Shown here in pieces: positions 5,605 to 13,648 of a DNA stretch of 64,000 nt. Numbering within the stretch: position 1 is the stretch's first letter; each line of letters begins with the position of its first letter. The notes below the pieces were generated by a model that did not search any database, was not told the DNA's origin, and saw only the letters and a program-made list of their open reading frames with translations. This DNA is from Escherichia phage EPFV3-03/2025. A program made the position numbers and the translations under genes. Where the stretch lies: the sequence record PV435126.1; one strand, 5' to 3'.

Positions 5605-5892
5605 TCATAGTGTCTCTAAAATTTCATACCCTTCGGGTCGGAAAACAAGCCACTCAGGTGCTCCATTTGGTCGATACGCTTTATACAGAACAACCTGATC
5701 TCGGCACATGCACATGGCTACATAGTTTTCATCAACACCTGCCTCCTGCATTGCATCTTCTTCTCCGGCAACAGCCTTGCTTACAACTTCCTTGGTAGGC
5801 AGGTGGGCGATCAGCTCGTCACCATCGTTAATTCCAAAATGACTGAGTTCTCCATTGGTATCTTTAATCTTGATCTTAACCAAATCTTTCAT
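5605..5892 (-). CDS. hypothetical small acidic protein
   Basis: 95-aa ORF starting MKDLVKIKIK; in tandem array. Confidence 0.55.
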   Translation of the reverse strand: MKDLVKIKIKDTNGELSHFGINDGDELIAHLPTKEVVSKAVAGEEDAMQEAGVDENYVAMCMCRDQVVLYKAYRPNGAPEWLVFRPEGYEILETL

Positions 5893-6221
5893 TAGTCTTC
5901 CTCCAGGTTCAAAGGTCCTAAGATTTCATATGCTAGATTAGAAGTTACCAGAGGGTCTTCTGCATCTTTAGTATTATACCATCCGTGAATAACCAGAGTC
6001 CCACTTTGCTTCATGTCTAACTGGAACTGTTCTGCCGTTTCCTCATCCATCTCCAAGATCTCCATGAGGTATTTGATGTTAGGAAGGTATGCAGCTGTTA
6101 CAGTCCCCTCTACCAGGCCTTCAGGCCAACCTACATCCGGATGACAAGTAGGGACCAGAGAGGTCAGCTTGATAGTGTATGCTTTTTCTGCACGAGCCTT
6201 CAGTAACGGATCAATTTTCAT
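5892..6221 (-). CDS. hypothetical small acidic protein
   Basis: 109-aa ORF; start overlaps previous stop. Confidence 0.55.
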   Translation of the reverse strand: MKIDPLLKARAEKAYTIKLTSLVPTCHPDVGWPEGLVEGTVTAAYLPNIKYLMEILEMDEETAEQFQLDMKQSGTLVIHGWYNTKDAEDPLVTSNLAYEILGPLNLEED

Positions 6222-6571
6222 TATTCTTCCTCCTCTTCGGTGCCTGCTTCCAGTAGTAAGTTAAGAACATCTTCAGCAGAAGGTTCGTAGAACTCTTGGC
6301 CTTCGTTGTCGATGATGCGATAGTCATCACCCCGAATAATCAGAGGATCGTCATCAAAACCTTCAAGACCTTTAACAACGACAACACGGTCGATTGCCAT
6401 CATTGTAAGAACTTTATCGACATCTTCCTCTGCTACACCATACTGCAGCAGAATGTCTTTGGTAGGAGGGACAGCATCCACCACAACACCGTTACCAAAA
6501 CCTTCCGGAAGTTTAGCTAAAATATCTTCCGGAACCACATTCATATCAAAACCTGTGATCTCTACTTTCAT
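6221..6571 (-). CDS. hypothetical small acidic protein (MK-V/I-E/K family)
   Basis: 116-aa ORF starting MKVEITG with poly-E C-terminus. Confidence 0.55.
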   Translation of the reverse strand: MKVEITGFDMNVVPEDILAKLPEGFGNGVVVDAVPPTKDILLQYGVAEEDVDKVLTMMAIDRVVVVKGLEGFDDDPLIIRGDDYRIIDNEGQEFYEPSAEDVLNLLLEAGTEEEEE

Positions 6572-6832
6572 TTACAGAACCTCTTCGTCAACTACTTCAT
6601 AAAAATGGCTTGGGATTGCAATGGCGTTCTCGCCTTCACCTAAGAACACTGTCCCACTAACGATTAACATTAGAAGAACGTCTGCGATACCTTCCTCGGG
6701 GACGTTGCCAAAACCTTTAATCAGCTCGTAGGTTGGAAGATTTACCTCTAAGATGTCACCATCTTTGGAGCGGAAATCAACACCATCCTGAATCTCTGCC
6801 GTTTCAAGGTTTTTCAATTTAATCTTCATCAA
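6572..6832 (-). CDS. hypothetical small acidic protein (MK-V/I-K family)
   Basis: 86-aa ORF starting MMKIKL, ending YEVVDEEVL; TTGACA-N17-AATAAT promoter-like motif upstream on the minus strand. Confidence 0.55.
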   Translation of the reverse strand: MMKIKLKNLETAEIQDGVDFRSKDGDILEVNLPTYELIKGFGNVPEEGIADVLLMLIVSGTVFLGEGENAIAIPSHFYEVVDEEVL

Positions 6833-6908
6833 TCAGTCTCCTGTCTTGTTAAGATGAAGGTATTATTGCACACAGGGTTGGTGTTGTCAACACCTGTGTG
6901 GAATAAAA

Positions 6909-7304
6909 TTACTGAAACAGTGCAGATAAATTACCTTCTGGTGGGAACTTATCTGCCAAGAACGGAGTCAGAACAGTGGCCTTCTGAAGATCTGGAGTCC
7001 ACTCGTTGTTCAGAACATCCCAGTAGTACGCAATGTTGCTGTGTGGGTGCCGCATTACGAACTTTTTCCCTTCGTAGTCAGTTGAAACCTCTACAGAAGA
7101 AATAACAACAGAATCTTCAAGAGTTTCTTCATAGAAAGATCCACCCTCGAATTTCCAACGAGATGCAAGAGCTCCTGCCTTAAACGCTGCAGATAACGGA
7201 CTGTCGGCAAGAACATACATTTCTTGCACTCTGTCGCTACGATCTTTGCTTCTTACGTTGTATACAGTATCTGAGCTATACTCAACACGGTATAGACTTA
7301 CCAT
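6909..7304 (-). CDS. hypothetical protein, paralog of 9107..9505
   Basis: 131 aa; shares HPxS..YW..WTP motif with the ORF at 9107..9505. Confidence 0.6.
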   Translation of the reverse strand: MVSLYRVEYSSDTVYNVRSKDRSDRVQEMYVLADSPLSAAFKAGALASRWKFEGGSFYEETLEDSVVISSVEVSTDYEGKKFVMRHPHSNIAYYWDVLNNEWTPDLQKATVLTPFLADKFPPEGNLSALFQ

Positions 7305-7636
7305 TACCGCACCTCCTCAATAACTTCCACATCTGAACCTACCACAAATGCAAAAGGGCAGGTTTCATGAAAGACATCCGGATCGCCGCCAAGCTTGCTA
7401 ACTATTTCTCCACCACTAATAAACACAAGCTCACCGATATTCATCAGATTGCTGAAATAGTATCCATAATGATTAAAGAATGCAGCAGGGTCAGGCAGAC
7501 TAGTAGCCTCAAGCTCTACATCGGTTGAGATTACTTTCTTATCATACCCTCTGGCCTTTTGAGATGCAAGATCTGCAGAATCCTCAGGCGACCGGAGATG
7601 CACAGGAATTGTTTCACCAATAAAGCGTACTTTCAT
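7304..7636 (-). CDS. hypothetical small acidic protein
   Basis: ORF 7304..7663 trimmed to internal start MKVRFIG to avoid overlap; ends VEVIEEVR. Confidence 0.5.
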   Translation of the reverse strand: MKVRFIGETIPVHLRSPEDSADLASQKARGYDKKVISTDVELEATSLPDPAAFFNHYGYYFSNLMNIGELVFISGGEIVSKLGGDPDVFHETCPFAFVVGSDVEVIEEVR

Positions 7637-7640
7637 ATTC

Positions 7641-7904
7641 TCACCCAACAACCATAGCTTCAAAAGGGGTCATAAACGAATAAACAGCATTATCATCTGC
7701 TTCAGGAAATGCCCCCAAAGACTTCATGTCTGAGCCCTTGACAAATACAAGGTTCTGATCAAAAGCTTCTTGTGGATCAATCCGATACATATTTCGTAGG
7801 GTATCACTTACCTCATCATCAAGAGGCGAGTATGCTGTGCACGTTTTTCCAATCAAGCTTTGAGAATCAGGGTATCCACCTGAAGTTTTAAAATAAACAA
7901 TCAT
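7641..7904 (-). CDS. hypothetical small acidic protein
   Basis: 87-aa ORF. Confidence 0.5.
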   Translation of the reverse strand: MIVYFKTSGGYPDSQSLIGKTCTAYSPLDDEVSDTLRNMYRIDPQEAFDQNLVFVKGSDMKSLGAFPEADDNAVYSFMTPFEAMVVG

Positions 7905-7992
7905 ACAGTATCACCTCTGGTAAGAGATGGGGATTCCTTTCCCACAAATAATTACAAACCTTTCTTGTCGAGGAAGTATGGCTAACCCAAGA

Positions 7993-8262
7993 TTACTCCT
8001 CTACAACCTCATACACATCCGGAGTTACAATCAACTCTTCTCCGTTGCCTGGAGCAACAAACACTACCAAACCTTCCGGTGTGTGCTTTTTAGCCATCTC
8101 GATGACATCTTCTCGCAGAGCTGGCTCCATCAAATCAAAACCTTCACCCAGAGCATCACGAACCACCTTCATGTAGTCCACTGGTTGTGCTTCAACGATC
8201 ATGCCTTCAACCAGTCCGCAGTTTTTGTCTGCCAGCTCAGTTTTGAATAATTTAATTTTCAT
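7993..8262 (-). CDS. hypothetical small acidic protein (MK-V/I-K family)
   Basis: 89 aa starting MKIKLF; GMIVEA motif shared with 13415..13648; ends YEVVEE. Confidence 0.55.
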   Translation of the reverse strand: MKIKLFKTELADKNCGLVEGMIVEAQPVDYMKVVRDALGEGFDLMEPALREDVIEMAKKHTPEGLVVFVAPGNGEELIVTPDVYEVVEE

Positions 8263-8399
8263 TTAGAGGTCTCCTCAATTATTTGATATTAATAGCCGTA
8301 ACCTAACACATTAACTACAACTGCGATTGCAAACATAATTTCAAAGCATGCAATCTCTACATTTGGGACTAATTTCTTAATCATACCCATTGTAGCACC

Positions 8400-8717
8400 T
8401 CAATCCCAAAAGTCAATCTTTACTTTACCTTTTCCCTTACCTTTCTTTCCACCGCATTTAGCCAACTGGCGTGCTGCAACATCCACCATACGGTCAGTTG
8501 CCTCGTAAGCATCGCTACCTTTAGCTTTGGCGATAACTTCTTTCCCAGAATTGTCAAAAATAAAAGCCATAACTTCCTGGTGATCATTTTCAACTTTTAC
8601 ACTCACACGTGCATAGTTGGCAGATGGGTGCAAACGCTCCAGTTTGGACATTTTGTGGGAAATGAAAGACACCATACCTTCAGTGATCTCTACGTTGCCA
8701 GTGATTTCAATCTGCAT
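8400..8717 (-). CDS. ribosome hibernation promoting factor / RaiA-like protein
   Basis: MQIEITGNVEITEGM...KLERL...VKVE...RQLAK resembles the HPF/YfiA family N-terminus MQLNITGxNVEITxA..KLE and C-terminal RQL(N/T)K, as recalled from the E. coli proteins; TTGACA-N17-TATCAT promoter upstream. Confidence 0.7.
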   Translation of the reverse strand: MQIEITGNVEITEGMVSFISHKMSKLERLHPSANYARVSVKVENDHQEVMAFIFDNSGKEVIAKAKGSDAYEATDRMVDVAARQLAKCGGKKGKGKGKVKIDFWD

Positions 8718-8798
8718 AACGTGCTCCTTTTAAAGAAGAGGGAACCAAACCCTCTTTGAAAATAATGATACTAAAGATCAAATGTTGTGTCAACAGTT

Positions 8799-9089
8799 TT
8801 ACAGCTTGTCGTCGATAGTTTTTAAAATATCTACTGCAAGATCTGCCATTTTACGAACATACTCTGCAAACTCAACAGGATCCTTGATCAATGAGTTCAC
8901 AGGGTCGTACCCTAGAGCGTTCAAAATGGCTGCAGCATCTACAACCTTCTCATCATTTGCGAAGATCTCTCCGTCAAACTTGTAGGTCCATTTTGAGTCA
9001 ATCTTGGCAGGGAAGGATTGGTCAACGCTTGTTACACCATCCTTTTTAAACGCTCCGGGGTTATCAGTGTCCAGAACTAAATCCATCAT
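8799..9089 (-). CDS. hypothetical protein
   Basis: 96-aa ORF. Confidence 0.5.
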   Translation of the reverse strand: MMDLVLDTDNPGAFKKDGVTSVDQSFPAKIDSKWTYKFDGEIFANDEKVVDAAAILNALGYDPVNSLIKDPVEFAEYVRKMADLAVDILKTIDDKL

Positions 9090-9106
9090 GTTAGTACCTC
9101 ACTGTT

Positions 9107-9505
9107 TCAGTTTAGCTTTTCTTCAACAACCCCATAACTTGGGGCAGAGTCAAGAGCTTTCTGGTTTAAAAGTGGCGTAGCAGAATCTGCAAACGGTGTC
9201 CAAGTTTTTGTTCTGGCATTCCAGTAATGCTTCACTCTAGAATCTGGATGCACTATAACAAAAACTTTTTCACTTGTCAACACATTAATTTCTTCCACAC
9301 CCTTGCTGATAATTTCTCCGTCATATCCTCCGGTCTGGTATCCTTCGTACCAGGTTCTTGCATAGGCATAGCCAGCCTGCCAGCATGCAGCCTCCTCCGA
9401 GGTGGAGACTACGTAGAAGTCTTTCTCAAATTCTGGGATACGCCCTTGCTTTACGCTCCAAGCTCCGCGAATTTTCATTGTAACTTTGAACAGTTTGTTT
9501 TTCAC
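9107..9505 (-). CDS. hypothetical protein, paralog of 6909..7304
   Basis: 132 aa; VIVHPDSRVKHYWNARTKTWTP matches VMRHPHSNIAYYWDVLNNEWTP in 6909..7304. Confidence 0.6.
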   Translation of the reverse strand: MKNKLFKVTMKIRGAWSVKQGRIPEFEKDFYVVSTSEEAACWQAGYAYARTWYEGYQTGGYDGEIISKGVEEINVLTSEKVFVIVHPDSRVKHYWNARTKTWTPFADSATPLLNQKALDSAPSYGVVEEKLN

Positions 9506-9517
9506 AACGGTTACCTA

Positions 9518-9772
9518 TTACAGCTCTACAATATCTGCATCTGACCCTGCCCCAAAGGCATAATAGGACTCTTTCCCGAAATAATATTCAGGTGCACCAG
9601 CGGCGATCAGGTCTGATCCTAAGATAAACACCACGTTGTGGCCTACATAACTATGATGTTGCCGCACAGGATCATCCCACGGTAACCCTTCAAAGTATAC
9701 CGCAGGAACGACCTTTCCCTTCAGGAAGGATTGTCCCAAGTAGACGTTAGAATCAAGAATTTTAACCTTCAT
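9518..9772 (-). CDS. hypothetical small acidic protein (MKVK-L family)
   Basis: 84 aa; MKVKILDSNVYLGQ..GKVV..DLIAAGA..IVEL, paralog of 9762..9989 and 13415..13648. Confidence 0.6.
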   Translation of the reverse strand: MKVKILDSNVYLGQSFLKGKVVPAVYFEGLPWDDPVRQHHSYVGHNVVFILGSDLIAAGAPEYYFGKESYYAFGAGSDADIVEL

Positions 9773-9989
9773 GATCGTCCTCCACTATCTCTACATCCTC
9801 ACCTAGGGCAAAGTTGTAGGTCCACTGACTGTCAAAGCAGTCCTGAGATGCACCAGCGGCAATAAGATCTGCTCCTTTTATTTTTAAAAGGTCAGGGTAA
9901 TCTTCGTTAGGGACAGCAGTAAACACTTTTCCTACTAAAGGCTCCTGACCAATATAGAAGCTTGAATCTAAAACTTTAACTTTCATCAA
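9762..9989 (-). CDS. hypothetical small acidic protein (MKVK-L family)
   Basis: 75 aa; MMKVKVLDSSFYIGQ..GKVF..DLIAAGA..EIVED; overlaps neighbour by about 10 nt. Confidence 0.6.
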   Translation of the reverse strand: MMKVKVLDSSFYIGQEPLVGKVFTAVPNEDYPDLLKIKGADLIAAGASQDCFDSQWTYNFALGEDVEIVEDDHEG

Positions 9990-10273
9990 CGGTCTCCATC
10001 AGGTGGTTGTGGGACGTAAACACTGTTACGAATATCGTCCGCAGTATAGTAATAAGTGTCTCCAACCCTATCTCTGGCTGCAATGTACTCTGCTATACCA
10101 ATAAGTGCCATTGATTTGGTGGCGTATCTTCCCAACTCGTTAGCTCCCCAGTAGAATTTAGACCAATAGGGAATAAGACCGAACAAATATACCTTTTGAC
10201 GAACTTCCCAGTAAGTGCCTTTCCCGACAAGTTTAAACTCGACTTCACCACTGTTAATCTTTTTCATTATCAA
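9986..10273 (-). CDS. hypothetical protein
   Basis: 95-aa ORF, start overlaps previous stop. Confidence 0.5.
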   Translation of the reverse strand: MIMKKINSGEVEFKLVGKGTYWEVRQKVYLFGLIPYWSKFYWGANELGRYATKSMALIGIAEYIAARDRVGDTYYYTADDIRNSVYVPQPPDGDR

Positions 10274-10566
10274 TCTCCCTCCACCGTGGTCGGATTGTCA
10301 GTAAGAAATTGAGCATTAGCTGGAGGCACACCTGACATTTTCCACACAACCATAAGTTTGTAACCCGGAACCCTATTAAGTGCAGATCGAGTAGAGTTTG
10401 TGCACGTATACTTTCGCTTTCCAAACCCGTTCTCCATCATAATCCAGTACCCAGTATCTTTGTCACCAGGTATCGGTAGACCACCTTCATCAACCCACTG
10501 AATGGACCACGGCACGATGGCTACAGCTTTATATTTAAACTTTTTAAACCACTCAAAAAGTTTCAT
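10270..10566 (-). CDS. hypothetical protein
   Basis: 98-aa ORF. Confidence 0.5.
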   Translation of the reverse strand: MKLFEWFKKFKYKAVAIVPWSIQWVDEGGLPIPGDKDTGYWIMMENGFGKRKYTCTNSTRSALNRVPGYKLMVVWKMSGVPPANAQFLTDNPTTVEGD

Positions 10567-11344: not shown

Positions 11345-11706
11345 TGAGCCTCCTTCTGCTGCAACAGCATTAACTCTTTGTTAGAGATCTTTACTGCTGT
11401 TTTTATTGTTCCGTCTTTACGGAACCACGACCAGAACTCTACAGTGTCCCCACTATCAAGCAAAGCATACCCGTGGTAGAAGTCTTTGTCCTTAGACAGT
11501 TTCTCATCTATGTCTGCATCGACACATTCGTGATCCATAGCATTTTGCCTGAATGCATCGGTTATGCCAATGCACGCCTTGCTCTCAAGACTGGTATATC
11601 CGGTATCTTTTAATTCGGTTTCCCAAACCCAGTATCCTGCAAAAGCTACGACAGTTACCAGCCCCATAGCAGCTACCAACTTTAATACCGATTTAATCTT
11701 TGCCAT
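11341..11706 (-). CDS. hypothetical membrane-anchored protein
   Basis: 121 aa with N-terminal hydrophobic segment LVAAMGLVTVVAFAGYWVW. Confidence 0.5.
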   Translation of the reverse strand: MAKIKSVLKLVAAMGLVTVVAFAGYWVWETELKDTGYTSLESKACIGITDAFRQNAMDHECVDADIDEKLSKDKDFYHGYALLDSGDTVEFWSWFRKDGTIKTAVKISNKELMLLQQKEAQ

Positions 11707-11766
11707 TCTCTCTACCTCTTTCTTAACTTATTTAACTATGGCACATCCTTTGTGCCTCATTGCACA

Positions 11767-12228
11767 CTACTTAAACAACAATTCAAAATAGTGAAAAATT
11801 AACAGAAGTTGAATTACGCCCAGCACAACGGCAAGTATGTTAATCTTAGAATCAAAAAACTTCTTAACTTTTACTCTAAAAGGTTCCTTAATGTCCTTTA
11901 CGATCCTATCTATAGATGACCTCATATCTCTGATTACCATCCTGAACATTAAAGACGGATGATCCTTCTCTGTAACGGAATCGAAAACATACTCTCTTTG
12001 ATCATAAGGGCCGCCAGCTCTGCGTATTAACCTCTCCACAGAGACCTCGAACGTCACACCTGTAACGTAATCATCTATGACAAGTAGTGACGGGTCTTTA
12101 CCATCAAGAGGCATCAAAGTTATCTTTCCAGATTTTGTTAAAATTTCTCCTTTTTCAAGTAAGGTGTACCAATGCTCTCTGCCAAGGCTGTTGAGGCACG
12201 TTTTTACATATTTAACAAACATCGTCAC
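11767..12228 (-). CDS. hypothetical protein with C-terminal hydrophobic segment
   Basis: 153-aa ORF; C-terminal ILAVVLGVIQLLLIF. Confidence 0.5.
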   Translation of the reverse strand: MTMFVKYVKTCLNSLGREHWYTLLEKGEILTKSGKITLMPLDGKDPSLLVIDDYVTGVTFEVSVERLIRRAGGPYDQREYVFDSVTEKDHPSLMFRMVIRDMRSSIDRIVKDIKEPFRVKVKKFFDSKINILAVVLGVIQLLLIFHYFELLFK

Positions 12229-12428
12229 CCCTCATCGCACGTCTGATATAACCACTCTATGAAATCTTGATACCATTCGCCCTCTGAGCGCTCCGTAGGC
12301 CAATAATCTTCACCCTCTCGTGCATTAAAATCTGAGTATTCAACTTTCCACTCCTTTACCAGCTCGTGGAGAAGGTTTTCAGCCTGCTCTAAAGATTTAT
12401 TTTTTACCATTGCTGTCTCCTTTTTCAA
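12225..12428 (-). CDS. hypothetical protein
   Basis: 67-aa ORF. Confidence 0.45.
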   Translation of the reverse strand: MKKETAMVKNKSLEQAENLLHELVKEWKVEYSDFNAREGEDYWPTERSEGEWYQDFIEWLYQTCDEG

Positions 12429-12629
12429 GATAGTTATACATCAGAACTGCACCACCTAAGATGGCTACCAGTAACAATATCCCAGATAGCATCTCAATAA
12501 ACATGGCTTGAAACACTGAAAGGTCTCCCTAAATTAACGCACCATTTTAAATACATGCTCTTTTCCCATAAAGGTGCCTGGCTAAGATCTGCGTAGAACG
12601 CAATCTCTTTAAGAACAGTATAGATAGTT

Positions 12630-12857
12630 TTAGGTGCGGTCTCCATCCCTACTCTCCTTCCGGATATTCTTGTAGTAATCGACTAGGCACATTATTACGA
12701 TGAAGATAACAACAGGCCAAAAAGGTGCAGCAGTGATGATGGTGATAAAATCATCAAACTTCACCCTTCGTCTGGACACGATGCATATACCTGTCAAGAA
12801 TACCGCTGTTATAACGGATATTACCAAGTAACCTATTAGCACAACATTTATACTCAT
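12630..12857 (-). CDS. hypothetical small membrane protein (two hydrophobic segments)
   Basis: 75 aa; two predicted TM stretches then a charged C-terminus, a holin-like architecture but not adjacent to lysis genes. Confidence 0.45.
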   Translation of the reverse strand: MSINVVLIGYLVISVITAVFLTGICIVSRRRVKFDDFITIITAAPFWPVVIFIVIMCLVDYYKNIRKESRDGDRT

Positions 12858-12887: not shown

Positions 12888-13418
12888 CTACAGATGGTTG
12901 CTTATGGTGTCAAGAAAATTATCCCGTTCTTTCTTGGAGTTTTCACGGGTGTAGCTGAAAAACATATCTAGAATAACCTTATTGATATATTCCAGCTCCT
13001 CTGTGTTCAGGTACTTAGCAGGATCTACAATGACATCCCAAGTCTCATACAGACCGCACTCATGATAACCCCAACGCTGCTCAATTGTCAAGCTGAGCGG
13101 CAAATCTTTACCGTCACAAACAACCTTCCATCTACAAATGCTGGTATCTGGGCACACCTGTGTACGGTATACCTGTACAAAATCCAATCTGAATTTGAGG
13201 TACTCGTCATACAATTTAAGCACAAAGCTCTCGATTTGTGGAGACACTTTTGCAGCAAACTGTGCGTATTTATACTTGCACTGGATGATCTTTCTGCGTT
13301 TTGCAGTTAAATTTTTTGCAGCCAGTTGTTCTTCAGTGTATCTCCACCGATCAACAAACGCAACAGGGTCTTTGTCCCCATAAAGGTCTTCCCAGTTAAT
13401 CAGAAGCATACCTGTCAC
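12888..13418 (-). CDS. hypothetical protein
   Basis: 176-aa ORF. Confidence 0.55.
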   Translation of the reverse strand: MTGMLLINWEDLYGDKDPVAFVDRWRYTEEQLAAKNLTAKRRKIIQCKYKYAQFAAKVSPQIESFVLKLYDEYLKFRLDFVQVYRTQVCPDTSICRWKVVCDGKDLPLSLTIEQRWGYHECGLYETWDVIVDPAKYLNTEELEYINKVILDMFFSYTRENSKKERDNFLDTISNHL

Positions 13419-13648
13419 TCCTCCACAACTTCAAGACCTTTACCGCCTCGCTCTGGCAGATTACTTAAAGACAGGTAATACGTATAGTCAGGAGAGATCC
13501 TGCCAGACTCTGCACCTGCAGATAGTAAATCTTTTCCCTTAACCATGACAACATTATCGTTTGCAGATAGTCGTTTTGCTTCCACAATTTTACCAACGCA
13601 GTCAACCAAGGAAGGGTACCCTAAATCTGTAAGAAATTTAACTTTCAT
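13415..13648 (-). CDS. hypothetical small acidic protein (MKVK-L family)
   Basis: 77 aa; MKVKFLTDLGY..GKIVEA..DLLSAGA..LEVVEE. Confidence 0.6.
   Translation of the reverse strand: MKVKFLTDLGYPSLVDCVGKIVEAKRLSANDNVVMVKGKDLLSAGAESGRISPDYTYYLSLSNLPERGGKGLEVVEE

Follow-up and report, generated by a model that had tools for sequence, protein, structure and literature searches.

The proteins gp137 and gp144 of phage rV5 (YP_002003639 and YP_002003646) belong to a single phage protein family, phrog_7379, which is already known in that it is grouped in PHROGs, where it is catalogued as of function unknown, and more than 100 GenBank records list its members as hypothetical proteins. The rV5 genes have been placed in transcription unit 82-163, with E. 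coli-type promoters found genome-wide (PMC3606486), but these two genes are not discussed in that paper, and their paralogy, two clades and cassette structure are undescribed there. Here we analysed a 64,000-nucleotide (nt) stretch of DNA from Escherichia phage EPFV3-03/2025 (PV435126.1; referred to as the window, whose numbering is used unless another record is named), in which two genes, A and B (Table 1), encode proteins 97-99% identical to rV5 gp144 and gp137, respectively. A and B are almost certainly paralogues, the products of an ancient duplication, and we propose, with a probability of roughly 0.55 for the whole statement, that they encode accessory, non-enzymatic binding proteins whose target is a macromolecule of the host or the phage, with the two clades specialised for different partners.

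Results

Positions 6500..10000 of the window showed 95-97% DNA identity to approximately 120 rV5-like genomes (Vequintavirus, ~137 kilobases (kb)), with phage VB-EcoM-WM (WM) as the best match and FV3 as the next, and the source of the window is a Vequintavirus, an rV5-like myophage. Every gene in this part of the window is carried on the minus strand. Gene A starts with an ATG overlapping the stop codon of the upstream gene (TAATG) and has a GAGGAGG Shine-Dalgarno sequence, while B starts with a GTG at 9505 with an AGGT Shine-Dalgarno sequence ahead of it. A shorter B, starting from an internal ATG (M10), is annotated in some GenBank records; the GTG is the preferred start as judged by alignment, because the part homologous to A and to P0006, a B-like protein of a divergent relative, extends from residue 4-5 onwards and takes in the first predicted beta-strand. 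Gene A was 95.7% identical in nucleotides to rV5 99613..100008, and the ratio of nonsynonymous to synonymous substitution (dN/dS) against rV5 and WM was 0.033 in A, with values of 0.06-0.09 in B; both genes are under strong purifying selection. Antisense open reading frames (ORFs) had no family support, and an Rfam search of 6000..10500 found no family. A and B are real protein-coding genes.

The first-pass annotation had proposed A and B as a duplicated family from a block that they share, V[IM][VR]HP[DH]S-x4-YW-x6-WTP. Both ORFs are present on the minus strand as described, encoding 131 and 132 amino acids (aa), and the block was found in both proteins at the same residue numbers, 83-104. 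The similarity was significant and extended beyond the block: BLASTP aligned A and B with 28% identity across 118 aa (expectation value (E) 2e-11, single comparison) and their Smith-Waterman score was 113, compared to 28 +/- 5 in 2000 shuffles (z 16.7). When the motif was excluded, the N-terminal 80 residues scored 47, which was equalled in only 2 of the 2000 shuffles, and the phrog_7379 profile (131 positions) matched A over residues 1-131 (E 4.2e-66) and B over residues 2-132 (E 4.3e-74). With similarity in the N-terminal part and along the full-length profile, it is not restricted to the motif, and the proposal of a duplicated family was upheld by pairwise, shuffle and profile statistics alike. 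The A/B match was among only three below 1e-3 in an all-against-all BLASTP of window ORFs of at least 50 aa (the cut-off of the window ORF list being 40 aa), and no DNA-level repeat was found between the two genes. In a 7-sequence alignment the residues H86, P87, W95 and W102 were invariant, with the invariant residues being mostly aromatic, Gly or Pro; H86, P87 and S89 were nearly invariant among phrog_7379 members. An identity of just 28%, and annotation of both genes as hypothetical only, would also fit a short motif shared by chance or ORFs that are not genes. This explanation was refuted by the shuffle and profile tests, in which the N-terminal part was independently significant, by dN/dS values of 0.03-0.09 and by the keeping of these ORFs in more than 115 genomes, with the antisense and Rfam results also standing against it, and its probability is negligible.

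To determine the distribution of the two genes, 50,697 phage records were searched by tblastn, which found A in 118 and B in 116, all of them Vequintavirus and more than 95% identical. Presence across related phages, which the first-pass annotation had named as a check, was near-universal, as a search with divergent queries recovered two places (both copies) in approximately 115 of the 118 Vequintavirus records. The exceptions were short partial records and phage EduardKellenberger (Bas59; MZ501061.1), where a deletion of ~3.7 kb removes B and ~13 neighbouring small genes from a phage that is viable (BASEL). B is dispensable in this one viable phage. At the deletion (L009 3635..4102), an in-frame fusion joins a homologue of gp123 ('putative glycosidase') to the final 33 codons of B. 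Eighteen of the records (MG0656xx), labelled 'Campylobacter phage' with Campylobacter jejuni as host, shared 95-96% identity with the rV5-like phages of E. coli in this region, which suggests misassigned hosts or contaminating coliphages.

Beyond these genomes, an exhaustive hidden Markov model (HMM) scan of 1.84 billion representative proteins returned no family members other than the clusters of A and B, fragments, and a pair of additional clusters: P0005, which is A-like (38-40% identical to A), and P0006, which is B-like (37-38% identical to B), both matching phrog_7379 at E 1e-25. A word-indexed search added a further A-like protein, P0012. Three large proteins from the HMM scan (P0008-P0010), which match via short repeats, were judged spurious. 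The family is tiny and limited to Vequintavirinae. The contigs of these relatives (52-139 kb) share a gene order of PhoH (in L006 only), a ClpP-like protease and a long run of small ORFs, and the sequenced phages closest to them are Vequintavirus, with 5-25% of the query aligned at ~71% nucleotide identity. Within 8-10 kb, contig L002 carried only a B-type gene and contigs L003-L006 only A-type genes, with an unrelated 96-aa gene at the expected place of B in L003; copies of the missing clade could lie elsewhere on those contigs.

In a neighbour-joining tree rooted on a remote homologue from phage 4MG, the proteins separated into an A-clade and a B-clade with bootstrap support of 0.99 each, and the clades also differed in isoelectric point (pI), with A-type proteins being acidic (4.85-5.1) and B-type proteins near neutral (7.0-7.8). 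Because each of these two clades has an orthologue of ~38% identity in the divergent uncultured relatives, the tree indicates that the duplication is ancient, older than the split of these lineages, and was apparently followed by differential retention.

The homologue used as root, gp155 of 4MG (Seunavirus; 185 aa, hypothetical), was the second-best structural match in BFVD (probability 0.98, TMq 0.54), and its sole PHROG match was phrog_7379 (E 0.009). In a full-length MAFFT register it keeps Y30, G44, R49, P87, W95, W102, T110 and G124, and its gene (L010 35925..36482) lies in a neighbourhood of the same kind, downstream of ClpP and methyltransferase genes. It differs in being only 17-21% identical (hhalign probability 12.7%) and in having an extra, strongly basic C-terminal tail of ~50 aa, rich in Lys, Arg and Glu, that is not in the Vequintavirus proteins. 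We regard gp155 as a probable distant member of the family.

The first-pass annotation had also described A and B as interleaved with a family of small acidic proteins, and this was borne out: the surrounding and intervening genes are small and mostly acidic (pI 4.0-5.1), with several belonging to the phrog_5009 superfamily. Each phrog_7379 gene directly follows a gene of that superfamily, at a spacing of -1 nt before A and 12 nt before B, so it was probably a cassette of two genes that was duplicated, a phrog_5009-like gene and then a phrog_7379 gene. The gene upstream of A matches phrog_13661; it aligned to phrog_5009 with an hhalign probability of 96% (E 4.8e-9) and to the product of 9762..9989 by BLASTP (E 3e-6), and by these matches it is placed as a remote member of the phrog_5009 superfamily. 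A three-gene segmental duplication (5009-5009-7379) was considered and rejected, because the product of 9762..9989 has its closest relative in that of 9518..9772 and vice versa (42% identity), a sign of a later tandem duplication; only the two-gene version is supported. The gene upstream of the A cassette, 7641..7904, is weakly phrog_5009-like; its product matched that of 13415..13648 (BLASTP E 7e-5), and its orthologue in L003 matched phrog_5009 at E 2e-6.

At least five members of the phrog_5009 superfamily, counting phrog_13920 and phrog_13661, are encoded on the minus strand of the window (13415..13648, 9762..9989, 9518..9772, 7641..7904 and 7304..7636), and they have in common the sequence MKVK... 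at the N-terminus and G(S/A)DL..AGA...F..G.DVEIVE at the C-terminus. Five further small proteins, encoded on the same strand at 6572..6829, 6221..6571, 5892..6221, 5605..5892 and 7993..8262, are very acidic (pI 4.0-4.6). The similarity of this set (5605..6832 and 7993..8262) to one another was weak (shuffle z 3-5), and they may be another, eroded paralogue family.

Table 1. Positions of A, B, their shared motif and neighbouring features in the window.
Feature	Position	Strand	Size and pI	Family or match	Remarks
A	6909..7304	-	131 aa, pI 4.85	phrog_7379, A-type clade	orthologue rV5 gp144/ORF149
Motif block in A	6993..7058	-	residues 83-104	VMRHPHS-NIAY-YW-DVLNNE-WTP	VMRHPHSNIAYYWDVLNNEWTP
B	9107..9505	-	132 aa, pI 7.8 (7.78)	phrog_7379, B-type clade	orthologue rV5 gp137/ORF142
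Motif block in B	9194..9259	-	residues 83-104	VIVHPDS-RVKH-YW-NARTKT-WTP	VIVHPDSRVKHYWNARTKTWTP
Gene upstream of A	7304..7663	-	110 aa from probable start 7636	phrog_13661, residues 10-119	
Gene upstream of A cassette	7641..7904	-	87 aa, pI 4.1	phrog_13920; weakly phrog_5009-like (E 1.4e-4)	
Gene upstream of B	9518..9772	-	84 aa	phrog_5009 (E 1e-31)	
Second phrog_5009 gene	9762..9989	-	75 aa, pI 4.05	phrog_5009	upstream of B cassette
phrog_12029 gene	8799..9089	-		phrog_12029	between B and the P144-equivalent site
HPF/RaiA ribosome hibernation factor	8400..8717	-		S30AE PF02482 (E 1.8e-12, 48 bits, cut-off 23.7)	
Small membrane ORF (ORF145)	between 8400 and 8262		33 aa		annotated in rV5 and WM; below the 40-aa cut-off
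phrog_11868 gene	7993..8262	-		phrog_11868	
Sigma-70-type promoter-like site	8765..8793	-		TTGACA-17-TATCAT, 11/12 consensus	rV5 P144 equivalent; upstream of HPF
Sigma-70-type promoter-like site	6862..6890	-		TTGACA-17-AATAAT with TG, 11/12	rV5 P150 equivalent; just downstream of A

Structural model and candidate roles

An AlphaFold model of A, built from the 7-sequence alignment, had a mean confidence (pLDDT) of 76 and a predicted template modelling score (pTM) of 0.69, with the motif region at pLDDT 82-91; a model of B from a 3-sequence alignment was unusable (pLDDT 51). The N-terminal part of the A model consists of a long beta-hairpin (residues 3-16 and 21-33), a helix (36-54) and a strand (65-73), and the C-terminal part is a beta-meander (81-85, 94-96, 101-103 and 125-129) that bears the conserved block. 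Searches of Pfam, NCBIfam, PADLOC and PDB sequences gave no significant match for A or B; the best PDB sequence match (E 0.26) and the best NCBIfam match (E 0.042, 12.6 bits against a cut-off of 100) were noise, and none of the known anti-phage defence models in PADLOC matched at E up to 1. No hydrophobic segment was found in the family proteins.

The top-ranked Foldseek matches to the A model were chains of the ribosomal protein eL20, covering the N-terminal domain only and weak (E at least 0.1, template modelling (TM) score ~0.4). Given that a gene for the ribosome hibernation factor HPF lies between A and B, it could be supposed that the products of these genes are ribosome- or translation-associated and work with the phage HPF, their eL20/LX-like N-terminal domain docking on rRNA or ribosomal proteins. 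The eL20 match was taken as probably a resemblance of fold rather than homology, because it is confined to the N-terminal domain, a small alpha/beta unit of a kind met in many unrelated proteins; the same beta-beta-alpha-beta fold gave matches to PurS, PaaB, YkzG and portal-vertex proteins. Of these, the scaffold subunits PurS and PaaB have no sequence relationship to A and B, only 55-58 residues were aligned, and there are no purine or phenylacetate genes near A and B. There was likewise no sequence similarity to eL20/L18Ae/LX, as Pfam, including Ribosomal_L18A, gave no match at E up to 1 for A, B, P0005, P0006 or P0012. The rRNA-binding eL20 is strongly basic, whereas A-type proteins are acidic and B-type proteins neutral, and it differs from the Trp-rich C-terminal half of A and B. 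Moreover, bacteria are not known to have an eL20 site, and no S30AE gene lies within 8 kb of the B-like gene of L002. A ribosomal role is unlikely on this evidence, the points in its favour being the weak fold match and synteny. Its more specific form, in which the phrog_7379 proteins would be eL20/LX-fold ribosome binders that remodel or protect host ribosomes together with HPF, with A- and B-types targeting different ribosomal states, is a long shot; action on ribosomes with a phage HPF would, if true, be a new kind of viral translation control.

The match to YkzG (4njc; TM 0.60 normalised to the target) raised a second candidate role, that of small, acidic RNA-polymerase-binding transcription modulators of the T7 Gp2 or Gram-positive epsilon (YkzG) type. 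YkzG resembles T7 Gp2, many phage proteins of 60-85 aa match the N-terminal domain in BFVD, and A is acidic. In addition, rV5 appears to be without late-transcription factors of its own (PMC3606486). The YkzG match was weak, however (E 1.9, probability 0.41), no Pfam family matched in sequence, and the phrog_7379 proteins have an extra conserved C-terminal domain that is absent from Gp2, making such a role improbable.

The near-invariance of H86, P87 and S89 would be expected of a small enzyme, such as a hydrolase or modifying enzyme, that uses the conserved His-Pro-x-Ser block. In 4MG gp155 His86 is replaced by Thr and Ser89 by Gly, with both Trp and the Pro, Thr and Gly residues retained, which speaks for a structural Trp pair and against a catalytic His and Ser. 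Nor was there any conserved acidic residue or conserved Cys with which a catalytic or metal site could be completed, and the strong structural matches included no enzyme fold. We consider an enzymatic role very doubtful.

A fourth candidate role came from the RefSeq note for rV5 (NC_011041.1, L007 7409..7807), which calls ORF142 similar to NP_463491 (gp30) of Listeria phage A118, a protein now annotated as the anti-CRISPR AcrIIA3; the similar size (125 aa) and the accessory location would also suit a counter-defence protein homologous to AcrIIA3. The similarity between B and AcrIIA3 was not significant, at E 0.037 over 42 aa by BLASTP (single comparison), and the family profile gave an hhalign probability of 0.4% against AcrIIA3, so homology to AcrIIA3 was refuted at the sequence level. 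We also counted against it that, to our knowledge, E. coli is without type II-A CRISPR. Furthermore, Table S3 of the 2013 rV5 paper gives no homologue for gene 142. AcrIIA3-type counter-defence is thus highly improbable; a generic anti-defence role unrelated to AcrIIA3 is possible and is included in the role proposed below. As the RefSeq note to NP_463491 rests on a non-significant similarity, it could mislead automated annotation.

Proposed role

The role that we favour for A and B, as accessory binding proteins without enzymatic activity, begins with their position in what appears to be an extended run of small genes that closes the replication/accessory transcription unit. Because this run carries consensus host-type sigma-70 promoters, A and B are probably transcribed by unmodified host RNA polymerase, in the non-structural phase of infection, and A probably shares a transcript with the gene for the phage ribosome-hibernation factor. 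In the modelled protein the N-terminal beta-beta-alpha-beta domain would pack on the Trp-rich C-terminal beta-meander carrying HPxS..YW..WTP. A soluble, non-enzymatic protein is suggested by the lack of Pfam, NCBIfam, PADLOC and PDB matches and of a hydrophobic segment, by conserved residues that are mostly aromatic, Gly or Pro, and by the His not being kept in 4MG. These proteins would then probably bind a host or phage macromolecule and thereby tune the infection, in an accessory, host-takeover or counter-defence role, and the acidic A-type and neutral B-type may have diverged toward different partners or conditions. That the role is an accessory one is supported by the absence of B and ~13 further genes from the viable Bas59 and from the presence of one type only within 8-10 kb in the divergent relatives.

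Several points weigh against this proposal. Both copies are near-universally kept at more than 95% identity, which argues for a greater importance than that of a typical dispensable accessory gene. For the promoters, the evidence consists of consensus matches, with no data on expression timing found, and our search of the literature on Vequintavirus transcriptomics and on the A and B genes found nothing relevant and no direct functional evidence. A new type of enzyme could also be without any recognisable catalytic motif. As to a place in the virion, no gp137 or gp144 entries were found in the rV5 supplementary tables, whose naming uses bare gene numbers.

As a lineage-restricted pair of hypothetical genes, A and B are ordinary for a large lytic phage. 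Their modest value lies in forming a cleanly defined family of two clades, strongly conserved yet dispensable, with a reasonable structural model, and their linkage to phrog_5009 and to a phage HPF makes them tractable candidates for host-takeover or counter-defence screens in the Vequintavirus phages of BASEL.

Neighbouring genes and promoters

The genes around A and B are arranged, in order of transcription, as 9762..9989, 9518..9772, B, 8799..9089, the HPF gene, the position of the 33-aa ORF, 7993..8262, 7641..7904, 7304..7636 and A. The HPF gene, which is annotated RaiA in rV5, opens a promoter-delimited block that ends with A. It was the only one to match in a search with PF02482, to which A and B gave no match, and it was kept in all of the Vequintavirus records (118/118) and in the divergent relatives L003-L006; its closest non-phage match was a Salmonella ribosomal subunit interface protein (42% identity). 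GenBank annotations of this region are inconsistent, with some records calling the HPF gene 'ATP-dependent protease La Type I', a neighbouring 89-aa gene called 'sigma 54 modulation factor' and an 86-aa gene called 'non-specific endonuclease' (VB-EcoM-WM); no Pfam support was found for these three labels. In the same accessory array of the relative L002 (JGI contig, 138.7 kb), an IS605 OrfB/TnpB (Cas12f-like) gene is inserted at 11532..12644.

At the P150-equivalent site just downstream of A, the -35 hexamer lies inside an 8-bp inverted repeat, CACACAGG...CCTGTGTG (6862..6905, minus strand). This repeat is not a typical terminator, because no T-run follows it, and it may serve as an operator or form a hairpin for RNA processing. 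A further promoter-like site was observed inside B at 9252..9280 (minus strand; TTGACA-17-TATAGT with an extended -10 TG, 11/12 sigma-70 matches), spanning B codons 76-85 and thereby sharing the first part of the motif. This internal site is unannotated in rV5 and, judging from its match to the consensus, could drive the downstream gene 8799..9089.

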